Source: a virus (taxonomy: Duplodnaviria; Heunggongvirae; Uroviricota; Caudoviricetes). Taken from it: 64,000 nt of DNA. Below are positions 3,716 through 58,974 of the stretch, piece after piece; within the stretch, counting starts at the first letter, position 1; every line of letters starts with the position of its first letter. A program made the position numbers and the translations under genes. The notes beneath the pieces are model-generated. The model was not told the DNA's origin. It saw nothing but the letters and a program-made list of their open reading frames with translations, and made no database searches. The stretch lies in the IMG/VR virus record IMGVR_UViG_3300027977_000006; one strand, given 5' to 3'.

Positions 3716-5518
3716 ACATCAATTGTTGAAGGTCTGGCCCAACTTATTAAAGATGGTGACGCACCTAGAACACTAATAAACAAAAGAATATTCACGTTAG
3801 ATTTAGCATCAATTGTTGCTGGTACAAAATATCGTGGCCAATTTGAGGAAAGAATGAAAGCTGTTTTGGAAGAGTGCAAAGCAAACCCAGACATAGTTCT
3901 TTTTATTGATGAACTACATACGATTGTTGGAGCTGGAAACGCTTCTGGCTCATTAGATGCTTCAAATATATTTAAACCAGCCTTGGCTCGTGGAGAAATA
4001 CAAATCATTGGTGCCACAACATTGGATGAATATCGTGAGAATATTGAAAAAGATGGAGCACTTACAAGACGTTTTCAACAAGTATTGGTAGAAGAGCCAA
4101 CATTAGAAGAAACCAAAACAATTCTAATGAATATCAAAGAAAAGTATGAAAAACACCATAAAGTAACTTATACTGAAGAAGCAATTGACGAATGTGTTAA
4201 ATTATCAGCTAGATATATCATGGATAGGTCGATGCCAGATAAAGCAATTGATGTTTTGGATGAAGCTGGTGCAACAACAAATGTTGTGTTGGAAAAACCA
4301 GAAAAAATTAAAGAATTAGAAATCAAGAAAAGCCAAATCTTAGAAAAGAAAAAAGAGGTGGTTTTAAAACAAAAGTACGAAGAAGCTGCCAAACTTAGAG
4401 ATGAAGAAAGAAAAATTCTAGAGCAACTTCAATCGGCTATGGATGATTGGAATGCAACTCTAGAGAAAAAAACAACTGTGGTTGGTGTAGAACTAATCTC
4501 TGAAGTGGTTTCAATGATGACTGGTATACCTTTGACAAAAATATCAACACAGGAAAGCAAAAGACTAATGAACTTGGATAAAGAACTTACTGGTAAAGTT
4601 ATAGGACAAGATGCTGCCGTTACTAAAGTCGTAAAAGCTATAAAGCGTAATCGTATCGGTATCAAAAATAAAAATAAACCAGTTGGTTCTTTCATGTTCC
4701 TTGGTTCAAGCGGGGTAGGTAAAACTTTATTAGCTAAATTATTGGCTGAACATGTTTATGGTGATGTTGATGCGCTTGTAAGAATGGATATGTCTGAATA
4801 TATGGAAAAACACTCAGTATCCAGAATGGTTGGTGCGCCTCCAGGTTACGTTGGCTACGAACAAGGTGGTCAACTAACTGAAAAAGTAAGAAGAAAACCA
4901 CACTGCGTAATCTTATTTGATGAAATAGAAAAAGCACATGAAGACGTTTTCAACCTGTTACTTCAATTATTAGATGAAGGTCAACTAACTGATGGTTTAG
5001 GTCGTAAAGTAAACTTTAAAAACGCTCTTATTATCATGACATCAAATATTGGTGTTAAAGAAGTTAATTCTTTTGGAAAGAGCTTAGGGTTTGAAACGGC
5101 TGCGACTATTGTTAATGAAGAAAACAAAGCACGTGAGATAATTGAAAAGGCTTTAAAAAAGAAGTTCAGACCAGAATTCTTAAATCGTATTGATGAGGCT
5201 ATAATATTCAGAGGACTAACAGAAGAAGATATACATAAAATCATATATCTTGAAGTTGAAAGCTTAGAAAAACGTTTGAATGAAATGAACTTCAAATTAA
5301 AAATAAGCAAAGAAGCGGTTGAATACTTGGCTAAACAAGGATATGATGAAGCTTATGGTGCTAGACCATTAGCCAGAGCCATTCAACATTATGTGGAAGA
5401 TGCTGTTGCTGATGAAATTTTAAATGGAAACATAAAAGAAGGTGAAACAATTAGTATAGATTTTATTAAAGAAAAAGAAGCCATAATAATAAAGGGTAGT
5501 AAATCTAAATCTAAATAA
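3314..5518 (+). CDS. clpC: ClpC-like AAA+ chaperone, C-terminal part: a 134-aa intein C-fragment ending NGILSHN, then the extein TSIVEGLAQLI..., the rest of NBD1, a short middle domain and NBD2 (second Walker A GSSGVGKT; sensor and arginine-finger regions)
   Basis: The intein TxxH-like block (KCADNHIV) and the terminal block NGILSHN|T are present. The downstream sequence aligns with ClpC NBD1 and NBD2 (VIGQDAAV...FLGSSGVGKT...GYVGYEQGGQLTE...DEIEKAH...GARPL). Confidence 0.8.
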   Translation: METLKKFTKTWNINNFSILTDTGFKKIDKLHETILYEVYHLKLADGKELKCADNHIVFVTEYDETTFEAVGLTEIFVKDLKIGSFVMVSDNNGNLVESEVLEVNNLGYKEIMYDFQLNENSNRRYFTNGILSHNTSIVEGLAQLIKDGDAPRTLINKRIFTLDLASIVAGTKYRGQFEERMKAVLEECKANPDIVLFIDELHTIVGAGNASGSLDASNIFKPALARGEIQIIGATTLDEYRENIEKDGALTRRFQQVLVEEPTLEETKTILMNIKEKYEKHHKVTYTEEAIDECVKLSARYIMDRSMPDKAIDVLDEAGATTNVVLEKPEKIKELEIKKSQILEKKKEVVLKQKYEEAAKLRDEERKILEQLQSAMDDWNATLEKKTTVVGVELISEVVSMMTGIPLTKISTQESKRLMNLDKELTGKVIGQDAAVTKVVKAIKRNRIGIKNKNKPVGSFMFLGSSGVGKTLLAKLLAEHVYGDVDALVRMDMSEYMEKHSVSRMVGAPPGYVGYEQGGQLTEKVRRKPHCVILFDEIEKAHEDVFNLLLQLLDEGQLTDGLGRKVNFKNALIIMTSNIGVKEVNSFGKSLGFETAATIVNEENKAREIIEKALKKKFRPEFLNRIDEAIIFRGLTEEDIHKIIYLEVESLEKRLNEMNFKLKISKEAVEYLAKQGYDEAYGARPLARAIQHYVEDAVADEILNGNIKEGETISIDFIKEKEAIIIKGSKSKSK

Positions 5519-5546
5519 ATAATAAAGGCCCCTTTTTGGGGCCTTT

Positions 5547-6293
5547 TTGATATTTATAATTATGATTGAAGATGAAATTAAAAAACTTTACAGTGATTAT
5601 CTAGACGGATTGGATATTTATGAAAATAGAACCAGTTTAAAAATTAGTAGAATAGTTTTAAAACCAGAAGCTAGACAAGGTGGTGTGGGTACTAAAATTA
5701 TGCAAGCAATAGTTAATTATGCTGACAGAAATAAACAAATAGTGACACTAACACCTTCTTCTGATTTTGGTGGAAATAAAAACAGACTTATTCAATTTTA
5801 TAAACGTTTCGGTTTTAAACATAATAAAGGCATATACAAAAACTTTGAATTCATGGATTCAATGATAAGATACCCTAAATTAAATGAAAACATGAAACCA
5901 ATTATAAAAAAACTTCTTAGAGAAGCTCTTATGACAAAAGAAGAGTCAGCTATTAGAATAGTAGCTGACTTTACAAACTTTGCTAATGAGTTTTTAGGGA
6001 TAAATGATGGTGTACAAGTTAAACTAGCTTTTGAGAGAACTCCAGATTTAAAAACAACTGCGTATTACAATTCAACTGGTTTTCTTGTAGTTTATGTCAA
6101 AGACAGAGCAATAATCGATGTGTGTCGTTCTATAGCACATGAATTGGTACATCATAAACAGAATTTAGATGGAAAACTTAAAGACGCTGTTATAGATGGT
6201 GAAGATGGGAGCCCAATTGAAAACGAAGCAAATGCTGTTGCTGGTATCATAATTAGAAAATATGGTAGACTACACCCAGAGATTTATGTATAG
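5547..6293 (+). CDS. Two-domain protein: an N-terminal GNAT-like acetyltransferase fold (RQGGVGTKIM) and a C-terminal HExxH (IAHELVHH) zinc-peptidase-like domain
   Basis: Motif-level recognition only. Confidence 0.45.
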   Translation: MIFIIMIEDEIKKLYSDYLDGLDIYENRTSLKISRIVLKPEARQGGVGTKIMQAIVNYADRNKQIVTLTPSSDFGGNKNRLIQFYKRFGFKHNKGIYKNFEFMDSMIRYPKLNENMKPIIKKLLREALMTKEESAIRIVADFTNFANEFLGINDGVQVKLAFERTPDLKTTAYYNSTGFLVVYVKDRAIIDVCRSIAHELVHHKQNLDGKLKDAVIDGEDGSPIENEANAVAGIIIRKYGRLHPEIYV

Positions 6294-7143
6294 TACAAAA
6301 CAAATTTTAAGAGAAGAATTATACTTACATAATAAAAAAAAATTATTGTCAGAACATTCTTTATTGCTTATAGAAGATGATTATTATGTTACTACTATTT
6401 TAGGTGTTGATAAATCTTTATTTGAAAATAATTTATTTTCTTATAAACAAACAGTTATCGAACAACAAATTATAGTTGAAAATATGATTGATTCTATCAA
6501 TAGTTATTTAGGTAGTGTTGTTCAAAAAGGTAAAGAAAAATCTTTACAACTTATTAAAACAATTAAAGACACAAAAGAATTGGCTATATTATTTAAAAAT
6601 ATTTTATTAGACCCAAAATTAATGGAAGAAGCTATTGAAAATGTTAAAAAAAATCTTAATGAAACAATAGTTGAGATTAAAAAATTAATTAATAATATTT
6701 TAACTAAATTAGGTTTTAAAATTAAAGGGTTTACTGACAAATTAACAATTTTTTTAGATAAAATATTAGAATATGGTAATAAATTTTTAAATTCAAAAGG
6801 TTGGGTTGGTTTTGTAACAATGCTTGGATTAACAGTAATGTTAATATGGTGTAAAAAAAATTGGTTGGATAAGTTATTAAATTTAGCAATAGAGCAATTA
6901 GAAAATCAAATTACAAACATTACTAGTATTGTTAATATTTTTAATAGTTTAAAAGAATTAATATCTGATGCGGCATCTAACTTAGGGGTTGATGAAATTT
7001 TAAACTGGTTTATTGGTTTTGGTAAAAAAGAACCATTAATAGGTATTGTTTTTAGTGCGATAGAAATAGTTAATATTATATCAGAAATTCTAATACCAAC
7101 TGTAAAAACAATAACAACCAGATTTAATTTAAGTAAATCATAA
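6286..7143 (+). CDS. hypothetical protein with a coiled coil and one transmembrane segment (alternative start at 6262)
   Basis: ORF overlapping the upstream stop by 8 nt; a hydrophobic segment GWVGFVTMLGLTVMLIW. Confidence 0.5.
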   Translation: MYSTKQILREELYLHNKKKLLSEHSLLLIEDDYYVTTILGVDKSLFENNLFSYKQTVIEQQIIVENMIDSINSYLGSVVQKGKEKSLQLIKTIKDTKELAILFKNILLDPKLMEEAIENVKKNLNETIVEIKKLINNILTKLGFKIKGFTDKLTIFLDKILEYGNKFLNSKGWVGFVTMLGLTVMLIWCKKNWLDKLLNLAIEQLENQITNITSIVNIFNSLKELISDAASNLGVDEILNWFIGFGKKEPLIGIVFSAIEIVNIISEILIPTVKTITTRFNLSKS

Positions 7144-25422: not shown

Positions 25423-26307
25423 TTAGTTTAGTTCGGCAAATACAAGTTCGTGGGCTTTCGTGTTAAGGTCGTTTGCCCTTGCATATAGTATGCTTTCGAT
25501 ATTGCCTTCTGCGAGGTTGTGGGTAGTGTAGCGTGTAACACCTTGCAACAAGCTAAAGAGGTTTGCACCTGTATTTTGCATTTCGATTGCAACGGCTTGG
25601 TTTATGCTGTCTAAAATGTTACGCTTACGAGTGTTAAGGTCGTTGTATTCCTTAACATCATAGCCTGTTAATTCAGTCATAAACTTGTCAATATCGGCTT
25701 GTCTGATTGACTTTAAAGCGGCATTATTAAGAAGTTGCACATGGCTTTCAGTCATAGCAGCAGCCTTAACGATTTCGTTTGTAAAGTAGGCTATTTTGCT
25801 AACATTGCCCTGTGTATTTTTCATAGCAAGGTCAACATCTTTGCGCCAATTTTTCGCACCATTGGCACACCATAGGCGCAAAGAGTAAAATCCTAAAGAC
25901 ATTTTAGTTTTACCATCAAAGCCTGTGCGGAACTCTAAAGAGGTTTCCAACGTATCGCCTACCATAGGGGTTTCGATTTCGTATTTTTTGTAAGGCAAAC
26001 GAAAGGCAATTTTTGAACCGCCATAGTATTCGTTATATGTTAGTTTGGTAAGGTCTAAGTCAATACCGCTATTCAATACGCTGTGTTCAATAGCATCTAA
26101 GAATAGCTGTAAGTTCATAGGCTCAAATTGGCTACCAACAACGCCCAAAGGTTTACCGCCTGTGTGCTTATATACACCAAAGGCTTCGGGGCTATCAAAG
26201 CCTTCAATACCGCTATGTAGCTGTATTTTTTTGGCTTGTAGCACTTGGCTTTTAAGGGTTTCAATGTGGTTTACTTGGGTTTCGATTGTTTCAAAAATGC
26301 TGTTCAT
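25423..26307 (-). CDS. DUF932 (phage/plasmid-like TIGR03299-type) protein
   Basis: GKPLGVVGSQFEPMNLQ and SLRLWCANGA resemble the DUF932 conserved blocks; local GC is clearly higher (~45%). Confidence 0.5.
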   Translation of the reverse strand: MNSIFETIETQVNHIETLKSQVLQAKKIQLHSGIEGFDSPEAFGVYKHTGGKPLGVVGSQFEPMNLQLFLDAIEHSVLNSGIDLDLTKLTYNEYYGGSKIAFRLPYKKYEIETPMVGDTLETSLEFRTGFDGKTKMSLGFYSLRLWCANGAKNWRKDVDLAMKNTQGNVSKIAYFTNEIVKAAAMTESHVQLLNNAALKSIRQADIDKFMTELTGYDVKEYNDLNTRKRNILDSINQAVAIEMQNTGANLFSLLQGVTRYTTHNLAEGNIESILYARANDLNTKAHELVFAELN

Positions 26308-26338
26308 AAGTTTGTTTGTTTTTTAATTGTTAACGATA

Positions 26339-26386
26339 GTGCAAATATCGAAATAACTTTTGAGATTTCCAAATTTTAAGTTACTT
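26339..26386 (-). promoter_or_regulatory. Variant sigma-A promoter cassette (GTGCAAATATCGAAATAAnTTTTGAGATTTCCAAATTTT) for 25423..26307
   Basis: The first of three near-identical ~45-bp copies (also at 26546 and 27197). Confidence 0.55.
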
Positions 26387-26469
26387 TATTTAAAAAAAGT
26401 TTTTGCACATAGTGTTGATAACTTTATTTTGTAGTTTCAATTTTTTTTATTATATTACGCACGTGTGTA

Positions 26470-26538
26470 TGTATAAAAAAAATAAAAACCAGGTTGGAGT
26501 ATACTTTCCGTTCCCTTTTGAAAAACGTAACGTCTTAT
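26470..26538 (-). ncRNA. Candidate small RNA A: a promoter-proximal, ORF-free transcript with the core GUAUACUCCAACCUGG followed by a U-rich tail
   Basis: The promoter copy at 26546-26584 has no ORF downstream; a 16-nt core is shared with the rightward locus at 49719-49734. Confidence 0.3.
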
Positions 26539-26545
26539 TGACAAG

Positions 26546-26584
26546 TGCAAATATCGAAATAATTTTTGAGATTTCCAAATTTTA
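26546..26584 (-). promoter_or_regulatory. Variant sigma-A promoter cassette (copy 2) driving candidate sRNA A
   Basis: Identical to the cassettes at 26339 and 27197. Confidence 0.5.
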
Positions 26585-26605
26585 AATGAATTATTTTAAA
26601 AAAGT

Positions 26606-26636
26606 TTATCCACACTCTTTTTTGAGAGTGTGGATA
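26606..26636. promoter_or_regulatory. Inverted pair of perfect DnaA boxes (TTATCCACA … TGTGGATAA) forming a 12-bp-arm palindrome, just upstream of the promoter cassette
   Basis: Exact DnaA-box consensus on both strands 13 bp apart; degenerate versions at 26414-26422 and 27259-27283. Confidence 0.5.
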
Positions 26637-26650
26637 ACTTTGTGTGTGGT

Positions 26651-27169
26651 TTATTCAGCAAACATTACTTTTGCACCGCAAGTGATTTCTTTTATACCTT
26701 CTAACTTTACAGTTCTAACTATTACATCATTTTCAACACCTTGATTAGTTGCCTTACTTGGTGCAGGTTTAAATTGCTTAATAGTGGTGATTTCTTGCTC
26801 GGTAGCTTCAATACCATTAACGAAGTATTTTAGCGTTTTGGCATTGTTACAAGCGAAAAACAAATATAAGGCAGTTGTATCTTTGCGATTGCAAACGATA
26901 CTACCATTAAAGCCATCGTTTACTTTCTCAAACCAATTTTCTTTTGCTTGAAAATCAGCTTCTTTGCCTTCTTTTTTTAGTCGGTTGTTTACCATGTTGG
27001 TATAGTTAGCATTAAGTAGCATATTATAGCTAACTAACTTTGTTACCTTTGCTTTGGCTAATGGGTTGTTTGTTTTAAGTTGTTTTTCTTCAACTATTGC
27101 AGTCATTTGAGCAAATGTAGCTGAACCGCCATCATTAATAAGAGTTTCGATAATTGTTTGTTTGTTCAT
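26651..27169 (-). CDS. hypothetical protein (172 aa)
   Basis: ORF; elevated GC. Confidence 0.5.
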   Translation of the reverse strand: MNKQTIIETLINDGGSATFAQMTAIVEEKQLKTNNPLAKAKVTKLVSYNMLLNANYTNMVNNRLKKEGKEADFQAKENWFEKVNDGFNGSIVCNRKDTTALYLFFACNNAKTLKYFVNGIEATEQEITTIKQFKPAPSKATNQGVENDVIVRTVKLEGIKEITCGAKVMFAE

Positions 27170-27196
27170 TTTAAAAAAGTTTAATTGTTAACGATA

Positions 27197-27234
27197 GTGC
27201 AAATATCGGAACAATTTTTGAGATTTCCAAATTT
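27197..27234 (-). promoter_or_regulatory. Variant sigma-A promoter cassette (copy 3) for 26651..27169
   Basis: Same ~45-bp sequence. Confidence 0.55.
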
Positions 27235-27465
27235 TAAATGAATTATTTTAAAAATAGTTTATCAACATTTTTTTGTTAATAACTTTGTTTGGTTGTGTGG
27301 GAATTTATTTGTATCTTTGCAATGCTAAAAGAAATAAGTTATGAAAGCAACATTAGTAAAACATTAAAGTAATTTCTTTGGATTTAGAAAAGACAAAATG
27401 TACCACAATGGTACATTAAAAACAACCCTATCATTTGCATTGGGTAAATTCAGATTGTTATTGTA

Positions 27466-36209: not shown

Positions 36210-36660
36210 CAGCTCGGCTGTGGTCGTGTACACAAATGTGTTCACATTACAAAAGGCAAATGCCCAGACCGCAATATAGCAATCTGGGCACCGCTTTGTT
36301 TACATAATGAGTGTGAGCTCCGTTGATTACAAGGTTGCTCATTTCCTTGCAACCAACGGCACTCATTTTTGGCTCAATGGGATGCCTTCCCACCGACTTA
36401 CGCCTCTTGGCAGAGAACCGATTGGTTGAGATAGCGTGGAATCACTGCTACGGTACACAGAGGTTCTCGTCAGAGAGTTACGCATGGAAGTTGCCATCCC
36501 TAACCAAATGCACAAGTCAATGGCTAAAAACGGAACGGCATCGCTGGGGAACATAAGTTCCCCTACAAACAGAGGCTGTATCTTGAACGGAGATTAACAT
36601 GAGAGAGGTGTATTAAACCGACCTACTCAAACCAATATTTTAAAGAACTTCTATTAACTT
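36210..36660 (-). ncRNA. Candidate structured ncRNA 1 (~450 nt): GC-rich (~50%), ORF-free, promoter-driven
   Basis: Promoter at 36667-36703. Long hairpins that need G-U pairs only in the minus-strand transcript: CCGUUGGUUGCAAGG/CCUUGUAAUCAACGG (15 bp), GCCCAGAUUGC/GCGGUCUGGGC (11 bp), GGGGAAC-UUAU-GUUCCCC. Confidence 0.4.
36227..36246. repeat. Palindrome TGTACACAAATGTGTTCACA (copy with 1 mismatch)
   Basis: Shared with 50343-50360 and 50632-50651. Confidence 0.6.
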
Positions 36661-36666
36661 CGATAG

Positions 36667-36703
36667 TACAAAGGTACGAAAACTTTTTGAAACTACCAAA
36701 TCT
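36667..36703 (-). promoter_or_regulatory. Early-type promoter (TACAAAGGTACGAAAACTTTTTGAAACTACCAAAT)
   Basis: Motif match; no ORF downstream. Confidence 0.5.
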
Positions 36704-38025: not shown

Positions 38026-38685
38026 ATGACTGAGGAACAAAAAGCAAAAAAGAAAATCACCGATAAAGCTTATCGAGATAGAAATAAAGCTAAAATTAAA
38101 GAACGTGATAAACTTTATTATGAAAATAATAAAGAAAAAATCAAATTAGCGAATAAAGAATACGCTGAAAAAAACAAAGAAACAAAAAAAGCATACAAAG
38201 AAAAATGGGTTAGTGAAAATAAAGACCGAATTAAGAAATACTATGAAGATAATAAAACTGAATTAAAAAGTAAACGTAAAACTTACATAGAAAGAAATAG
38301 AGATAAAATTCGTGAATATGATAGAAATTACCGTAAACGTAAAATGGTTGAAGACCCATTGTATAGGTTAAAAGCCCATCTGAGAATTTTAATAAATAAA
38401 TCATTAAGAGCCAAACAATACGTTAAAAACTCAAAAACTATTGAAATTTTAGGTTGTTCGTATGAAGAGTTTAAACAACACATTGAATCATTATGGCAAC
38501 CATGGATGAATTGGGGTAATAAAGGTTTATACAATGGCCAACCAAATTATGGTTGGGATATTGACCATATTACTCCATTATCAACTGGTATGACAAAAGA
38601 AGAATTAATAAAGTTAAATCATTATACTAACTTACAACCATTATGTAGTTATATTAATAGGGATGTAAAAAGAGATAATATTTGA
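38026..38685 (+). CDS. Free-standing HNH endonuclease, paralog 1 (basic N-terminal K/E/N-rich repeats plus a C-terminal ILGCSYEEFKQHIES…NYGWDIDHITP…LNHYTNLQPLCSYINR HNH core)
   Basis: The D-H…N…N-L-Q-P-L-C HNH motif; paralogous to 39842..40492 and 41499..42194; oriented against the surrounding genes. Confidence 0.6.
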   Translation: MTEEQKAKKKITDKAYRDRNKAKIKERDKLYYENNKEKIKLANKEYAEKNKETKKAYKEKWVSENKDRIKKYYEDNKTELKSKRKTYIERNRDKIREYDRNYRKRKMVEDPLYRLKAHLRILINKSLRAKQYVKNSKTIEILGCSYEEFKQHIESLWQPWMNWGNKGLYNGQPNYGWDIDHITPLSTGMTKEELIKLNHYTNLQPLCSYINRDVKRDNI

Positions 38686-39841: not shown

Positions 39842-40492
39842 ATGAAAACCGATAGAAAAATTATTCAACAACGATATAGAGAAAAAAATCGTGAAATACT
39901 TAGAGAAAAAAATAGACTATATAAAGAAAAAAATGCTGAGTCAATTAAACTAAAAAATAAACTCTATAAAGAACAACATAGTGAAACAATATCTGAATAT
40001 AATCATAAAACAAAAGACCAAAAAAAACTAACAGATAAATTGTACCGTGAAAAAAATGCTGAATCAATTAAACAGAAAAAAAGAGAGTATTACGAAGCTA
40101 ATAAAACTAAAATTAGAGAATATAATCGAAACTATAAAATTAATCGTATGAAAGACGACCCTTTATTTTTTCTTAAACGAAAAATTCATAATATTATTTA
40201 TAAAGCTATAAAACATAATTATACCAAAAATAAATCAACATTACAAATACTCGGATGTTCTTATGAAGAATTTAAACAGCATCTCGAAAGTCAGTTTGAA
40301 TCGTGGATGAATTGGGAAAATTATGGCTTATATAAAAAAGGAGAATTAAATTATGGTTGGGATATTGACCATATAATCCCAACCAGTTCTGCTAAAACAG
40401 AAGATAAATTAATTCAATTAAACCATTATACTAATTTAAAACCACTTTGTTCTTATACTAATAGATATATAAAAAAGGATAACCTTATATAA
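39842..40492 (+). CDS. Free-standing HNH endonuclease, paralog 2
   Basis: Same architecture: …ILGCSYEEFKQHLESQFESWMNW…NYGWDIDHIIP…LNHYTNLKPLCSYTNR. Confidence 0.6.
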   Translation: MKTDRKIIQQRYREKNREILREKNRLYKEKNAESIKLKNKLYKEQHSETISEYNHKTKDQKKLTDKLYREKNAESIKQKKREYYEANKTKIREYNRNYKINRMKDDPLFFLKRKIHNIIYKAIKHNYTKNKSTLQILGCSYEEFKQHLESQFESWMNWENYGLYKKGELNYGWDIDHIIPTSSAKTEDKLIQLNHYTNLKPLCSYTNRYIKKDNLI

Positions 40493-41498: not shown

Positions 41499-42194
41499 GT
41501 GAGTATGCAAAAAAAATGTCAAAAATGTAGTGAATTAAAAGATATTAATTCATTTAGTAAACAATCAACAAATAAAGATGGTTATAAAAGCACATGCAAA
41601 ATTTGTGTTGCTGAATATGGTAAAAAATATAGATTAAATAATATTGAAAAAGAAAAAGATAGAAGTAATTCTTATTATAAAAACAATAAAGATAAACGCT
41701 CCGATTATTTTAATTCAAAAAAAGAAGAAAAAAAAGAATACGCAAAAAAATATCGTAAAGAGAATAAAGTAAAAATTAGCGAACAACGCAAAAAAAAATA
41801 TCTAGAAAATAAAGAAATTATTAGCAAAAAAAATTATGAATACCATAAACGAAAAATGGAAACCGACCCTTTATTTAAATTAAAAAAACAACTCAAAGGT
41901 TTAATCAGGGATAGTTTAAGAAATCAAAATTTAAAAAAATCAGATAAAACAATAGATATATTGGGCTGCACTATACAAGAATTTAAACAACATATTGAAT
42001 CACAATTTGAGTCATGGATGACTTGGGAAAATAAAGGGTTATATAATGGTGAATTAAACTATGGGTGGGATATCGACCATATCATTCCAACTTCTAGCGG
42101 TTCAACTTATGAAGAAATTATTAAACTTAACCATTACAGCAATTTACAACCTTTATGTGGTTATATTAATAGGCATGTAAAAAGAAATAATTAA
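41499..42194 (+). CDS. Free-standing HNH endonuclease, paralog 3, with an extra N-terminal zinc ribbon (CQKCSELK…CKICVAEY)
   Basis: CxxC…CxxC plus repeats plus the conserved HNH C-terminus. Confidence 0.6.
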   Translation: MSMQKKCQKCSELKDINSFSKQSTNKDGYKSTCKICVAEYGKKYRLNNIEKEKDRSNSYYKNNKDKRSDYFNSKKEEKKEYAKKYRKENKVKISEQRKKKYLENKEIISKKNYEYHKRKMETDPLFKLKKQLKGLIRDSLRNQNLKKSDKTIDILGCTIQEFKQHIESQFESWMTWENKGLYNGELNYGWDIDHIIPTSSGSTYEEIIKLNHYSNLQPLCGYINRHVKRNN

Positions 42195-48731: not shown

Positions 48732-49502
48732 TTAATTGTTATGTTTAACATCATTTACCCCCTTTTCTGTTTTAATTACAAACCCACTCTCAAAAGCTGC
48801 CTTGTTCTTTTCAGCACCACCTTTGCCTGTCATTTTCTTATACTTCAACCCACATATAACTCCCTTCTTATCCAAAAACCTCAAATCATCCAAATCAGCA
48901 TTTATAACTTCAAACCCTTCAAAGGTTTCGGGTAATTTGTCAAATACCATTGCTACATTTATACCTTGCTTTAGCAACTCAATTGCTTTATCATGATTGG
49001 TTTCACTTCTGCTAAAAGTTAAATGATAATTCTTTGGCAATTCCTTTTCAAACCGCTTATGATTTTTGGTATAGTCATAAAATTGTATATTAGGAAACAA
49101 CTCAAATATATTCTTACCACCCTCAAATACCTTAAACTTTTCCCATACCACATCACTAGTGCCATTAAACCTAAATGTTACAATAGCTTTACCCTCATTC
49201 TTTTTAATAGCCTTTTCAACCTCTTCTCTCAATTGTTTCAAAAAACCCTCTCTATCACTCAAAAAATACTCTGTCTTGTTAACCCTACCTTGCATTACGC
49301 TAGTGTACATTCCACCAAAACCACTACCCACCAAACAACTTTCAGCACAACCCTTACTAGCATGTGGGCACAAATTAATTCCTTTAGAATTTGCCTTGAA
49401 TGGCGACATGTACAATATGTAAGTCATGTAACCTAGCTTTTCTCCTTTGATAGTCTTTGCATTGTTAGTAGTTAACAACGGCTTTCTTTTAATTGCTTGC
49501 AT
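48732..49502 (-). CDS. GP88-family-like phage protein (256 aa)
   Basis: GINLCPHASKGCAESCLVGSGFGGMYTSVMQGRVNKTEYF resembles the Cys-rich N-terminal block of Pfam GP88; promoter at 49526-49562. Confidence 0.4.
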   Translation of the reverse strand: MQAIKRKPLLTTNNAKTIKGEKLGYMTYILYMSPFKANSKGINLCPHASKGCAESCLVGSGFGGMYTSVMQGRVNKTEYFLSDREGFLKQLREEVEKAIKKNEGKAIVTFRFNGTSDVVWEKFKVFEGGKNIFELFPNIQFYDYTKNHKRFEKELPKNYHLTFSRSETNHDKAIELLKQGINVAMVFDKLPETFEGFEVINADLDDLRFLDKKGVICGLKYKKMTGKGGAEKNKAAFESGFVIKTEKGVNDVKHNN

Positions 49503-49635
49503 ATAAATGTTTATTTGATTAATGACTGCAAAGATAGATATTATTTTGAAACTACCAAATTTTATCTCACCTTTTTTAAATTATTTTTTTTAACCCCCTT
49601 TTTATATAATAAGGTATAAAACTTTTTCTGAAATA

Positions 49636-49670
49636 AATTTGGTAATGTCATTTTCTTTTCCTATCTTTGC
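49636..49670 (+). promoter_or_regulatory. Rightward consensus promoter P1 (AAATTTGGTAATGTCA…TATCTTTGC), no ORF downstream
   Basis: Motif match on the plus strand. Confidence 0.55.
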
Positions 49671-49676
49671 TGTGTC

Positions 49677-49750
49677 AAAATTAAATAAGACGGGTTCGAT
49701 ATGAGAATATCGCAGAGGGTATACTCCAACCTGGGCATTATTTTAAAATG
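49677..49750 (+). ncRNA. Candidate small RNA B, a homolog of candidate sRNA A at 26470-26538 (shared AAUAAGACG…GUAUACUCCAACCUGG plus a U-rich tail)
   Basis: Immediately downstream of P1; contains a CGAUAU-GAGAA-UAUCG hairpin; no ORF. Confidence 0.35.
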
Positions 49751-49765
49751 TTAACGAATGTTAAA

Positions 49766-49799
49766 AATTTGGTAATGTCAAAAATCTTTCATACCTTTG
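49766..49799 (+). promoter_or_regulatory. Rightward consensus promoter P2 (AAATTTGGTAATGTCAAAAATCTTTCATACCTTTG)
   Basis: Motif match. Confidence 0.55.
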
Positions 49800-49834
49800 T
49801 GGTTTAACTTAAATTTTATCTATATGATTAGGTA

Positions 49835-49859
49835 TGTTGATAACTTTGTTGATAACTTT
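49835..49859. repeat. Tandem direct repeat GTTGATAACTTT x2 (DnaA-box-like TTGATAAC cores)
   Basis: Seen directly; related TGTTGATAACTTT / TGTGGATAACTTT / TGTTAATAACTTT at 26412, 26626 and 27275. Confidence 0.5.
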
Positions 49860-49867
49860 ACCAAAAT

Positions 49868-49904
49868 AAATTTGGTAATGTCAAAAATCTTTTATACCTT
49901 TGCA
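49868..49904 (+). promoter_or_regulatory. Rightward consensus promoter P3 (AAATTTGGTAATGTCAAAAATCTTTTATACCTTTGCA)
   Basis: Motif match; followed by ~800 bp with no convincing ORF. Confidence 0.55.
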
Positions 49905-50342
49905 TTCACTAACTTAACCCATATTATGCCCTTATGAAAAATTAAAATTACATATCGCAAAAAAATTTAACACACCTTAAATAAAGGTCGTGTTGCACCC
50001 ACTCCGTAAGGATGATGGGTTATTCGTGTTTCTCTACGTGTACTTTAAAAATGTTCTACGTGGAACGCTACACCTATACCCAAAAATTTCAGCCGAAAAA
50101 TCATCGAGAATTTGTGAAAGGTATAATACTTTTAGCAGTTTTTTCATTACTTTTTCATTACTTTTTAGATTATGTTAAATGATACTTTTATGGTGTTTAT
50201 AACCCTCTGGTAATCAATCTCCTATTTTTCAGGTGAAATCTCACCACAATTTCCCACAATTTACCACTTTTTACCAAAAAAACACAAAAAGCCTTAAAAA
50301 AAAGCAAACGTGCGAATGTGGGTACAGTTTTGTGGGGTTTGT

Positions 50343-50360
50343 GTACACAAATGTGTACAT
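50343..50360. repeat. Perfect 18-bp palindrome TGTACACA-AA-TGTGTACA
   Basis: Seen directly. Confidence 0.7.
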
Positions 50361-50400
50361 ATTTAGGGTATATATGAACCTATATATAATATGATATATG

Positions 50401-50577
50401 GGTATTATTTAGGTTATTCATTATTCTTATTTTTGCTTTTAGGCTTATCTTCTGGTGTAGGGATTATTTTGTCCAATTTAGGTATTAGGTATTTCTTTTT
50501 CCATTGTTCGAAGGTTAGGTTTAGGCTGGGGTTTTTTTTAAGAAAGGTTTCATACTGGGTTTTTAGGGTAGACATAA
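50401..50577 (-). CDS. small hypothetical protein (58 aa, MSTLKTQYETFLKKNPSLNLTFEQWKKKYLIPKLDK…), flanked by the two palindromes
   Basis: Hydrophilic protein-like ORF just below the track cutoff; no recognisable promoter. Confidence 0.3.
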
Positions 50578-50631
50578 TATGTATAATATGATAATGTAAT
50601 AGGTGTAGTATGTGTATAGATTTTATAAGTT

Positions 50632-50651
50632 ATGTACACAAATGTGTACAT
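50632..50651. repeat. Perfect 20-bp palindrome ATGTACACA-AA-TGTGTACAT
   Basis: Seen directly. Confidence 0.7.
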
Positions 50652-50707
50652 AGGTTTTAGGTGGATAAGGTAATATTGGATATTTTACTTTAGATTGTTG
50701 TAGCATT

Positions 50708-51160
50708 TTATTCTGATATAAGAATTAATTCTTGATTTGTCAATGCAAAATATATATTCTGTAATTGATGAACATATATTATATCTACCATTGAAAATGC
50801 CCTTAAATCATCAAATGTATTATCTAAAATTGTGTAATTTGCGTTATTTCTTCTAACATCAATTTGTAAATAATAATCATGATTTGGGTCAGTATATGTA
50901 ATATAATCATTATCACCTTTATCTATATTTTGGAATCCAAACTTATATAACCAATCTTCTGTTAATAAAATACCTTCTATGTTCTCAATAAGTCCAAAAT
51001 CTCCACATCTAAATCCAACTTCTTCTTTACAAATTGAAGCGACCAAAGCTATCTCTTGATGGTCATCTCCATTCCAGTTCACCCAATTCCCAATTTTTAA
51101 TTCATTTGCTGTCATCTTATTTCTTTTTAAATTGTTCAAACCATTGTTCAAAAGTATCAT
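50708..51160 (-). CDS. hypothetical protein (150 aa)
   Basis: ORF. Confidence 0.5.
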   Translation of the reverse strand: MILLNNGLNNLKRNKMTANELKIGNWVNWNGDDHQEIALVASICKEEVGFRCGDFGLIENIEGILLTEDWLYKFGFQNIDKGDNDYITYTDPNHDYYLQIDVRRNNANYTILDNTFDDLRAFSMVDIIYVHQLQNIYFALTNQELILISE

Positions 51161-54236: not shown

Positions 54237-54255
54237 AACTTTTATTTTTGTTTAG

Positions 54256-54327
54256 TAGTCAGGACAAGATTCGAACTTGTATTCTATTACTTCCGTAATC
54301 GCCATTACCATTATCGACCACCTGACT
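54256..54327 (-). tRNA. tRNA-like element (72 nt): 7-bp acceptor stem AGTCAGG/CCTGACT, discriminator A, T-arm ACAAG-TTCGAAT-CTTGT. The anticodon and D region is non-canonical (GTAAT-GGCG-ATTAC-GGAA-GTAAT alternative hairpins)
   Basis: Hand folding; driven by the promoter-like element at 54454-54490. The overlapping plus ORF 54183..54452 is implausible. Confidence 0.4.
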
Positions 54328-58078: not shown

Positions 58079-58117
58079 AGTGCAAAGGTAAGTAAAGTTT
58101 TTGACACTACCAAATTT
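58079..58117 (-). promoter_or_regulatory. Consensus early promoter (GTGCAAAGGTAAGTAAAGTTTTTGACACTACCAAATTT)
   Basis: Motif match. Confidence 0.6.
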
Positions 58118-58974
58118 TATATGGGTAAATTTACTTTTGACAATATTTGATTTGAAACATGAGTATAAATTTCAGTAGTTTTAACACTAGAATGCCCTAG
58201 AATTTTCTGTATTAATTTTAAATCCGTTCCATTTTCTAGAAGATTTGTGGCACAACTATGTCTTAGAGTATGTATATGTCCAGACAATTCAATGTATTTT
58301 TTATACATTTCTTGACAACTTCTTACAGAATATTGATTTGTCATTTGGCCATTAAATAGATATTCAGTTGGTCTATATTCTTTAAAATATTCTCTCAGTA
58401 GATTGAGGACATTTTGTGATAATGGGACCACTCTATCTTTCCTACCTTTAGCATTTTTTATATGAACCAGCATCCTTTTTGAATCAATATCTTCAATTTT
58501 TATATTGACAATTTCAGAAACTCTTAAACCAACTGAATATGTTAGTGTGAGAATTGCTTTGTGTTTAAGATTTTCAATTTTAGATAATCTTTCTTTGATA
58601 AATTCTCCATCAATAACTCTTGGAAGTTTCTTCTCTGATTTTGGTCTGTTAAAATTGACTTTATCATATTTTTTATCAAGCCCGTATTTGTATAAAAAAC
58701 GGATTGCATTTATCACTTGATTCTGTTGAGAAACAGAGGAAAATTGATACTTGTCCAAGTAGGACTGAAAATTTTTGGAATTACAATGAATAATTTGCTT
58801 TTCACCTAAAGATTTAAGAAAGTCTTTGATGTGACTTATGTAATTATCTTTTGTTCTTGGAGAATAGTTTAAGTATATAAACTTTTGCTCACAAATCTTT
58901 ATAATTTTTTGATTCAAAGTATTGATTTTAAAGGGTTTAGGGTATACTTGTTTATATATGATAGTTAGCACCAA
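58117..58974 (-). CDS. int: Tyrosine recombinase / phage integrase family protein
   Basis: GLRVSE, box II HTLRHSCATNLLENGTDLKLIQKILGHSSVKTTEIYTHV (R…H-x-x-R…Y). Confidence 0.8.
   Translation of the reverse strand: MVLTIIYKQVYPKPFKINTLNQKIIKICEQKFIYLNYSPRTKDNYISHIKDFLKSLGEKQIIHCNSKNFQSYLDKYQFSSVSQQNQVINAIRFLYKYGLDKKYDKVNFNRPKSEKKLPRVIDGEFIKERLSKIENLKHKAILTLTYSVGLRVSEIVNIKIEDIDSKRMLVHIKNAKGRKDRVVPLSQNVLNLLREYFKEYRPTEYLFNGQMTNQYSVRSCQEMYKKYIELSGHIHTLRHSCATNLLENGTDLKLIQKILGHSSVKTTEIYTHVSNQILSKVNLPI

Follow-up and report, generated by a model that had tools for sequence, protein, structure and literature searches.

The primary origin of phage T7 consists of the tandem promoters 1.1A and 1.1B and an AT-rich stretch, oriF and oriG of T4 and RNA II of ColE1 represent transcription-activated or RNA-primed origins, and the lambda origin is built from four iterons, an AT-rich region and a palindrome, with transcription from pR stimulated by DnaA. 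Promoter-proximal RNAs with two hairpins are known from HK022 as the put-type RNAs. In prophages of non-RepA mycobacteriophages, replication requires a region near parABS from which a non-coding RNA is expressed (PMC7157519). These cluster A phages (RedRock, Alma and others) are small and temperate; they have ParA and ParB genes of their own and a parS made of 8-bp direct repeats (PMC7157519). The centromere consensus of chromosomal parS, the site of ParB (Spo0J), is TGTTNCACGTGAAACA, and in Myxococcus the parS consensus is TGTTCCACGTGGAACG (PMC7022226).

Here, a 64,000-nucleotide stretch of phage DNA (the window, to which all positions refer) was analysed. The phage is a jumbo phage of the Flavobacteria type with a genome of at least 300 kb, and it is not represented among 50,697 phage records, in which its DNA gave a single 60-bp match at chance level. 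Three perfect Bacteroidetes-type promoters on the plus strand point into a gap of 1.2 kb without a credible ORF. We propose, with a probability of about one half, that this hub is a transcription-coupled, centromere- or origin-like cis site combined with a small RNA (sRNA) gene, a function that is read from its anatomy. In common with the T7, T4, ColE1 and lambda origins, the hub has strong tandem promoters that point into DNA without genes, phased boxes of iteron-like type with an A/T tract and a palindrome behind them, and DnaA-box-like sites at a promoter; it differs from them in having no homology, a Bacteroidetes-type host polymerase and no adjacent initiator gene. The likeness to the cluster A mycobacteriophages (PMC7157519) lies in a predicted non-coding transcript beside putative partition sites and no recognisable initiator gene, whereas the jumbo size of this phage, its predicted parS of host type and the putative nature of its replication role set it apart.

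A promoter-rich gap and its gene content

Genes next to the hub encode a GP88-like protein and a member of PHROG 10066. The promoters and ORFs of the region are as follows:

48732-49502, minus strand: GP88-like gene (Pfam PF17338, E=1.1e-44)
49529-49563, minus strand: divergent promoter of the GP88-like gene, motif match with 2 mismatches
49635-49669, plus strand: promoter P1, 0 mismatches, -33 TTTG and -7 TAnnTTTG, heading the sRNA
49765-49799, plus strand: promoter P2, 0 mismatches
49834-49857: direct repeat GTTGATAACTTT, two copies
49835-49855, plus strand: DnaA-box-like direct 9-mers TGTTGATAA, two copies, just upstream of P3
49868-49902, plus strand: promoter P3, 0 mismatches, 97% identity to P2
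49990-50178, plus strand: ORF of 62 aa, no Pfam match, not conserved
50012-50182, plus strand: ORF of 56 aa overlapping the 62-aa ORF, no Pfam match, not conserved
50414-50575, minus strand: leftward ORF of 53 aa inside the TAGG array, no Pfam match

No gene was called in the gap on any of three independent metagenome contigs with an identical hub, and no hub ORF was conserved in related loci, which upholds the original prediction that this DNA has no plausible protein-coding gene. The 62-aa, 56-aa and 53-aa ORFs were rejected as genes for lack of Pfam matches and conserved homologs. The leftward ORF, earlier given as 58 aa, is 53 aa long; it had no homolog by tblastn in 2.5 Mb of related loci, and the strand composition at its position is opposite to that of the leftward genes. 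It is probably spurious, and the proposed antisense regulation of this ORF is thereby moot. ARAGORN found no tRNA or tmRNA in the hub and made one odd call only, at 54255-54327, and with the covariance models of the Rfam 15 families no match at gathering score was obtained in the window, the hub included.

The promoter motif, AAATTTGG-N19-TANNTTTG scanned at up to 2 mismatches, occurred at 43 sites in the window against 5.85 expected, nearly all of them 5' of ORFs. The three tandem rightward copies of the original prediction were confirmed at 49635, 49765 and 49868 without a mismatch, and P1 to P3 have the marks of Bacteroidetes primary-sigma promoters, with both elements at consensus, a spacer of approximately 19-21 nt and recurrence before genes. 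Their spacing (130 and 103 bp) is conserved in the related locus L001 (129 and 99 bp). The approximately 70-nt transcript from P2 up to P3 displayed no structure (fold z = -0.06), and P2 is therefore probably a second start of the P3 unit. P2 and P3 are laid out as tandem starts of one rightward unit, which we infer to be transcribed. As in RNA-primed or transcription-activated origins, these promoters face a non-coding region: from P2/P3 it is 150 nt to the parS-like site and 340 nt to the CCAC boxes described below, with no ORF between. At the place equivalent to the DnaA-box-like pair, L001 has TGTTGATAA and a perfect TGTGGATAA. DnaA boxes as hub-specific origin marks were rejected, since the motif is enriched over the whole window (16 versus 2.9 expected), several promoters having copies upstream.

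The small RNA behind P1 and the leader behind P3

Two copies of the sRNA and a leader with a conserved hairpin were located:

49670-49744, plus strand: sRNA copy 1, matched by covariance model R2 at 49670-49736
26487-26546, minus strand: sRNA copy 2, R1 29.7 bits, R2 58 bits, own promoter at 26548-26582
49906-50050, plus strand: P3 leader RNA, fold z = -3.78, none of 200 shuffles equally stable
49986-50030, plus strand: leader hairpin GGTCGT..CCCACTCC..GGA..TGGGTTATTCGTGT, conserved

Copy 1 consists of stem-loop 1, a CGGG linker, stem-loop 2 with a GAGA tetraloop, the 3' motif GGUAUACUCCAACCU and a U-run, in this order. The R2 model, although built without copy 1, matched it at 33.8 bits (E=4.4e-7), and the R2 matches in the window had E-values of 4.4e-7 and 1.6e-13. 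The family comprises 34 members in related phage contigs, every one with a consensus-type promoter; GNRA-type loops recur on stem-loop 2, and many copies end in a U-run, as stand-alone sRNA genes do. Over the 34 sequences, 89.4% of the cells were paired, where shuffles gave 64.9% and slid controls 32-49%, and 105 cells versus 32 were altered on both sides. Compensatory change was seen in 10 of the 12 pairs, in an alignment that was fitted to the model and hence leans towards structure. MAFFT with RNAalifold, where the alignment is not structure-aware, gave no structure; this was obtained after a covariance model was seeded and the sequences were re-aligned. The single-sequence folds are unexceptional (z = -1.1 and +0.2), and it is thus the covariation, not the folding energy, that supports the structure. 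The original prediction of a non-coding RNA was thus borne out for P1. On this comparative evidence, P1 was shown to be the promoter of a stand-alone structured sRNA of approximately 70 nt, of which the phage has at least two copies.

The sRNA family is new and absent from Rfam, in which no family matched 49670-49744 at E up to 10, and no prior description of the motif was found in the literature searched. With phage sRNAs and the HK022 put-type RNAs it shares a length of about 70 nt, two stem-loops right behind a strong promoter, multiple copies and a phage-borne location; it has no sequence or Rfam relation to them, and the U-run at the end of many copies and the conserved single-stranded 3' motif set it apart. 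The conserved 3' motif, GUAUACUCCAACCU, had no antisense match within the window in a complementarity search for a target. A CRISPR-repeat mimic (RNA anti-CRISPR) was rejected by a test that covered the 3' motif: among 185,579 species genomes, the 19-nt motif occurred as single copies in 16 stretches, one of the 16 a family member, and no arrays were found.

The leader of L001 is visibly homologous to that of the window, and a homologous leader hairpin was found in L001, L008 and L002, where the stem sequence differs and the shape is kept. In five relatives (L001, L004, L006, L013 and L015) a plus-strand gene of 139 aa sits between P3 and the repeats, and its 5'UTR occupies the position of the P3 leader. 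The encoded proteins are 54-70% identical among the relatives and 63-70% identical to that of L001 (MAFFT alignment); they had no Pfam or PDB match, profile search included, and a weak match to PHROG 'endonuclease VII'. An HNH-like motif was read by eye in this protein. The gene is absent from the window hub and from L008, and L161, L192 and L182 had no match to the protein. A conserved plus-strand gene in related phages had been named as what would refute the original prediction; such a gene does exist in the five relatives, and is missing here and from gene-less hubs such as L008. As a consequence, a P2/P3 transcript of this phage would lead directly to the DNA elements.

The parS-like site and the downstream DNA module

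The elements following the P3 leader hairpin are listed below, unstranded unless a strand is given:

50052-50067: parS-like palindrome TGTTCTACGTGGAACG, 15/16 to the Myxococcus consensus
50080-50129: conserved block of approximately 50 bp, AAAAATTTCAGCCGAAAAAT...GAGA...GGTATAATAC, with columns invariant in 8 hubs
50140-50161: tandem 11-bp repeats TTTTTCATTAC, two copies
50218-50276: block TCTCCTATTTTTCAGGT and then four CCAC boxes, conserved in 8 hubs
50233-50246: hairpin GGTGAAATCTCACC
50277-50325: A-tract and then an AAACGTG...GGGTAC block; in hub alignment A7, the CGTG and, within GGGTAC, the T/C columns do not vary
50342-50359: PAL1, TGTACACA-AA-TGTGTACA, operator-like inverted repeat, aligned in A7
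50360-50632, plus strand: G-rich TAGG array of ten oriented motifs, consensus approximately TTTAGGNTTAT, bracketed by PAL1 and PAL2
50633-50650: PAL2, the same 18-bp inverted repeat again in direct orientation, 291 bp away from PAL1

The 16-bp palindromes TGTTNCACGTGAAACA and TGTTCCACGTGGAACA served as parS test sequences. The window site deviates from the Myxococcus consensus by C6 to T, a mismatch that falls within the CACGTG core, and a decayed parS half-copy lies beside it (50030-50043). It scores 14/16 to the Pseudomonas consensus, and taken alone it is not significant (p ~0.11 by chance). Perfect 16/16 sites were present in duplicate at the homologous hub place in L008, L161 and L192, and upstream of the GP88 gene in L038, L040, L045, L048, L061, L062 and L066, against approximately 0.001 expected by chance in those loci; they read TGTTCCACGTGGAACA or TGTTTCACGTGAAACA. 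In IMG/VR, parS was found in at least 120 stretches, among which only the multi-site clusters are clearly non-random. No gene for ParB, ParA or a replication initiator was found in the 64-kb window and 20 kb beyond its ends (approximately 84 kb), by searches with a regex and with tblastn from a Spo0J query, which divergent ParB-like proteins could escape. The site resembles chromosomal parS in being a 16-bp palindrome, perfect in related phage hubs and 15/16 of the Myxococcus variant here, and in often occurring as two nearby copies in the relatives, as around bacterial origins. It differs in being a predicted site in a non-coding hub of a phage genome, and the search of the ~84 kb found no parAB operon. 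No phage-borne parS of host type had been described before in the literature searched.

The imperfect site and the adjoining half-copy, together with the 139-aa gene that five relatives have and this phage lacks, could also mean that the gene was deleted in this lineage and that its orphan promoters and flanks are functionless debris. We regard this as very unlikely, because the gene-less hubs (L008, L161, L192 and L182) retain every element, some with a perfect doubled parS, and because the promoters of the window are still at full consensus.

From parS to PAL, the module aligns in 8 phage hubs; its approximately 40 invariant columns form short blocks, and the spacers between these vary, a pattern that fits protein-binding DNA. 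The direct repeats (the GTTGATAACTTT and TTTTTCATTAC pairs) and the small hairpin (GGTGAAATCTCACC) of the original prediction were all located; at the position of the TTTTTCATTAC pair, relatives have tandem repeats of other sequence and number. The CCAC boxes (ACCAC, CCCAC, ACCAC and ACCA) start at 50243, 50253, 50263 and 50273, a period of exactly 10 bp, and all boxes therefore lie on one helix face. With the A-tract next to them they form helically phased direct repeats beside an A/T-rich stretch, as in iteron origins. The adjacent or overlapping initiator gene of such origins was not found, the neighbours being the GP88-like and PHROG 10066 proteins, and in relatives the neighbour of the iteron-like boxes is the 139-aa protein without a family assignment. 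The GC skew is -0.64 over the boxes, where a plus-strand transcript would be C-rich. Such a C-rich transcript over the CCAC boxes is not favourable to R-loops. At PAL1 the skew flips sharply, to between +0.3 and +0.7 over the TAGG array, and the plus strand is G-rich over 50300-50750 (skew up to +0.7); at the 2-kb scale, the cumulative GC skew had no turning point at the hub. TAGG occurred 10 times against 0.6 expected and once on the other strand, a 16-fold enrichment on one strand. Several TAGG motifs were seen by eye, uncounted, at the same place in L004.

The PAL sequence, TGTACACAAATGTGTACA, is present at both 50342-50359 and 50633-50650. The two copies do bracket the leftward ORF as predicted, but they are not perfect palindromes, having 8-nt arms around an asymmetric AA. 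Including looser copies, 4 sites of the window gave 8 strand-matches to the motif, where 0.14 would be expected, and the motif was found in 32 viral stretches, many of the contigs also having a GP88-like gene. As PAL-like copies lie beside plus-strand cassettes elsewhere in the window (36227 and 29844), DnaA-box-like motifs lie upstream of several promoters, and four promoters are packed within 400 bp, the palindromes, the parS-like site and the phased boxes might solely be operators that time the early promoters (for a KorB/ParB-like or HTH repressor, for example), with no role in replication or segregation. This purely transcriptional role appears unlikely: parS, boxes and PAL are situated 150-750 bp downstream of the promoters without overlap, and an array of tandem repeats, phased boxes, A-tract and one-strand TAGG between palindromes exceeds what operators need.

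Repeat arrays with palindromes also recall pac or cosB regions, and several related hubs are at contig starts (L161). A packaging start (pac/cos) or genome terminus with terminase sites is nevertheless highly improbable, given that there are no terminase or structural genes nearby, that the ends of contigs at repeats arise as artefacts of assembly and that terminases are not known to use parS.

The original prediction saw the stretch as a hub of non-coding RNAs. This was right as far as P1 is a structured sRNA gene and the P3 leader is structured, and it missed that the most informative features are DNA sites (parS, the phased CCAC boxes and the operator-like palindrome), whose sequence is conserved in the 8 hubs. 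That everything past P3 acts as RNA (sRNAs, a primer or an antisense regulator) would agree with the covariance evidence for the P1 sRNA and with a leader hairpin that keeps its shape with altered sequence in relatives. It seems quite unlikely when what is conserved downstream is palindromic sequence and short boxes in phase rather than covarying helices, when parS is known as a DNA site, the P2 transcript is unstructured and the supposed antisense target, the 53-aa ORF, is unconserved. The broader claim of a regulatory or replication hub fits the anatomy of promoters directed into repeats and palindromes.

A candidate genome-maintenance site

The function of the proposed centromere- or origin-like site may be depicted as follows: The hub would be the cis-acting genome-maintenance site of the phage. 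Host ParB, or an unseen ParB-like protein of the phage, would load at parS, and a conserved phage protein would bind the phased boxes and palindromes. The rightward promoters would fire strongly and early, perhaps under the influence of the DnaA-box-like pair at P3; this transcription would open or prime the adjacent A/T-rich, G-skewed DNA, and the outcome would be a transcription-activated origin and/or a centromere. A bolder version, which we put forward tentatively and consider rather unlikely, is that a phage family with a host-type parS in a transcribed hub and without its own ParB captures the ParB-CTP clamp of the host, and through it ParA or SMC, so that the phage genome is positioned, condensed or begins to replicate, with the multi-copy sRNA belonging to this take-over programme.

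Outside a few model phages, the replication start and DNA organisation of jumbo phages are poorly known. If true, the proposal would provide a concrete, conserved candidate origin or centromere for jumbo phages, and a phage that uses the centromere sequence of the host chromosome itself. It adds a covariation-supported family of phage sRNAs with consensus promoters, which is directly testable. More generally, promoters that seem to fire into nothing may flag DNA sites that act in cis, and such a site can be kept even where a gene that relatives have at the spot has gone missing.

Hub layout and phage identity

The promoter motif of the window is of the Bacteroidetes type (-33 TTTG, -7 TAnnTTTG) and occurs at 43 sites against 5.85 expected, nearly all of them preceding an ORF. 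No close DNA relative was found among 50,697 phage records. Many metagenome contigs hold the window sequence at approximately 100% identity, the longest being 300,480 bp, and encode a sigma-70-like factor, SmpB, a ClpB-like ATPase and thymidylate synthase. Together these findings indicate that the window is part of a jumbo phage with a Flavobacteria-type host. The jumbo-phage genes of the window and of contigs L374 and L375 also include an ART-PolyVal domain protein, and the ClpB-like ATPase is paired with a Clp_N partner. A tyrosine recombinase/integrase lies at 58117-58974 (-) (PHROG 1, E=6e-46), and ARAGORN made a tRNA-like call with an aberrant 2-nt 'anticodon' at 54255-54327 (-).

The three tandem rightward consensus promoters predicted in the hub, the gene-free stretch at about 49560-50700, were borne out with 0 mismatches at 49635, 49765 and 49868 (+) (P1, P2 and P3), and every repeat and the hairpin listed for it are present. 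The prediction that the hub holds no protein-coding gene also stood, as three independent gene calls on the identical hub left 1.2 kb empty. The leftward ORF is 53 aa long, not 58 as claimed. Both of the supposed perfect palindromes exist as inverted repeats, but are built of 8-nt arms around a central AA. The features referred to below are:

49529-49563, - strand, divergent promoter of the GP88-like gene (48732-49502, -), by motif match
49670-49736, + strand, sRNA copy 1 (covariance model, 33.8 bits, E=4.4e-7; copy outside the seed)
26487-26546, - strand, sRNA copy 2 (covariance model)
50052-50067, parS-like site TGTTCTACGTGGAACG, one core mismatch relative to the Myxococcus form
50243, 50253, 50263 and 50273 (starts), CCAC boxes at exact 10-bp spacing

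A small RNA family downstream of P1

The family was first traced through a conserved 15-mer downstream of P1, sought in viral contigs. In many phages a consensus promoter is likewise followed, after about 20 nt, by CGGG and then by a variable hairpin and GGTATACTCCAACCT. A covariance model with a seed of 3 sequences, rebuilt on 20, detected exactly 2 full copies in the window and 34 in related loci, where usually one directly adjoins the GP88-like gene and others lie elsewhere. Paired cells make up 89.4% of this last alignment, compared with 64.9% after shuffling and 32-49% with slid partners; fitting to the model biases these values towards structure, but the slid control is nonetheless clear. 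Cells changed on both sides numbered 105 versus 32, with compensatory change in 10 of 12 pairs. Stem-loop 2 commonly carries a GNRA tetraloop at its tip (GAGA in the window copy), the 3' 14-25 nt are conserved in sequence, and a U-run terminates many copies.

The P1 RNA matched no Rfam family and no tRNA, no antisense target was found in the window, and one-per-species genomes yielded a single family member, on a 4-kb MAG contig. We conclude from these comparisons that the P1 RNA represents a phage-borne, apparently undescribed sRNA family. The closest relative, L001, carries a diverged member (56 bits) at 6803-6871 (+), just 3' of its GP88-like gene and in the opposite orientation; the window has no equivalent of it.

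Three near-identical promoters occur at 26342-26376, 26548-26582 and 27200-27234 within 26300-27300 (-), the middle one being the promoter of sRNA copy 2, and a DnaA-box-like GTTATCMAC element lies ahead of each. At 26606-26637 a perfect inverted repeat contains two consensus DnaA boxes and is also a terminator-like hairpin. Window-wide, the DnaA-box-like 9-mer TGTKGATAA has 16 occurrences where 2.9 are expected, and several of them precede promoters by a few tens of bp; the motif may serve to control transcription as a site for host DnaA or for a phage regulator.

Another ORF-free, relatively GC-rich stretch of about 450 nt, 36210-36665 (-), lies downstream of a consensus promoter (36669-36703, -). 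Its first 150 nt, the part tested, gave a fold z of -6.58, no Rfam match was obtained at E up to 1, and it is a candidate for a large structured RNA. A hub palindrome copy with 1 mismatch is located at its far end (36227-36244).

The P2/P3 unit and the conserved DNA

P2 and P3 are 97% identical, and the P1-P2-P3 spacing is seen again in L001. In fold tests the predicted P2 transcript was unstructured as far as P3, and the predicted P3 transcript (49906-50075) was significantly structured (z = -3.78); its hairpin recurs in L001, L008 and L002 with other stem sequences. The equivalent leader in L001, L004, L006, L013 and L015 precedes a conserved + strand gene of 139 aa, with 54-70% identity (63-70% to L001 in an alignment of the proteins). 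The original prediction was to fall if related phages had a conserved + strand gene here; they do, but this phage lacks it, so the objection holds for the relatives and not for this genome. It is also absent from L008, whose hub lacks such an ORF, and L002, L161, L192 and L182 gave no match to the protein and likewise keep the conserved elements of the hub.

For the 139-aa protein, Pfam and PDB yielded no relative and PHROG no more than a weak 'endonuclease VII' match; the protein is weakly similar to the products of 39842-40492 and 41499-42194. These two and 38026-38685 are + strand genes amid a sea of - strand genes; 38026-38685 and 41499-42194 match PHROG 1035 'endonuclease VII', and all three look like free-standing homing-type nuclease genes.

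A literature search with the palindrome GTTCCACGTGGAAC gave only chromosome-partition papers. It is the core of canonical parS, of general form TGTTNCACGTGAAACA, with TGTTCCACGTGGAACG in Myxococcus and TGTTCCACGTGGAACA in Pseudomonas (PMC7022226). The window site alone is not significant. At the homologous position, L008, L161 and L192 have two perfect 16-mer parS each, and seven more distant GP88-linked loci have perfect parS 0.5-3.7 kb upstream of the GP88-like gene; the chance expectation for the perfect sites is about 0.001. The phage L045, which has a higher GC content and a GP88-like gene, carries a perfect parS within the final codons of a 145-aa ORF (5242-5679, -) divergent from that gene, and in L038, L040, L061, L062 and L066 a perfect parS is likewise found upstream of the respective GP88-like gene. 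These six loci indicate that the GP88-parS linkage reaches beyond the Flavobacteria-type family. Six other IMG/VR contigs (L258, L267, L286, L287, L288 and L292) each contain 3-5 perfect canonical parS within a few kb, and host-type parS may be common on mobile or viral DNA.

When the parS-to-palindrome segments of 8 hubs were aligned, about 40 columns were invariant, in short blocks: parS, AAAATTT..GCCGAAAAAT, a TATAAAG-like box and tandem repeats of varying sequence, followed by TTCCCATTTTTCGGGTAT, the phased CCAC boxes, an A-tract, AAACGTG..GGGTAC and TGTACACAAATGTGTACA. The interval bounded by the two copies of the palindrome (50342-50359 and 50633-50650) has 10 TAGG on the + strand against 0.6 expected, and 1 on the other strand. 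GC skew is -0.64 over the CCAC boxes and jumps to +0.3 to +0.7 between the palindromes. No homolog of the 53-aa ORF inside the TAGG array turned up in 2.5 Mb of related loci. In L004, reading by eye revealed several TAGG motifs at the corresponding position, without an ORF homologous to the 53-aa one. The conservation pattern fits protein-binding DNA, and a parS by definition serves as the site where ParB loads.

A centromere/origin-like reading of the hub

Iteron-type and transcription-activated origins, such as those of lambda, T7, T4 and ColE1, classically combine direct repeats in helical phase with an A/T tract and a palindrome downstream of strong promoters, and the hub resembles them in this anatomy. 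A direct precedent for a partition site with a non-coding transcript is given by non-RepA mycobacteriophage prophages, in which partition sites are coupled with a required non-coding transcript (PMC7157519). Given the protein-binding type of conservation, the parS sites, the origin-like anatomy and this precedent, our preferred reading of the hub is a transcription-coupled centromere/origin-like site accompanied by an sRNA gene.

Several observations weigh on the other side. The window parS is imperfect, the DnaA-box-like motifs are spread over the window and not confined to the hub, and there is no large-scale GC skew signal. Searches of about 84 kb found no gene for ParB, ParA or an initiator. 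The main rival is that the palindromes have a purely regulatory role; the centromere/origin-like site is preferred.

Our literature searches found no prior description of a host-type parS conserved in a transcribed non-coding jumbo-phage hub beside a multi-copy sRNA. Each component of the hub is of a known kind, and the novelty lies in the combination of a conserved parS hub with a new multi-copy sRNA family.
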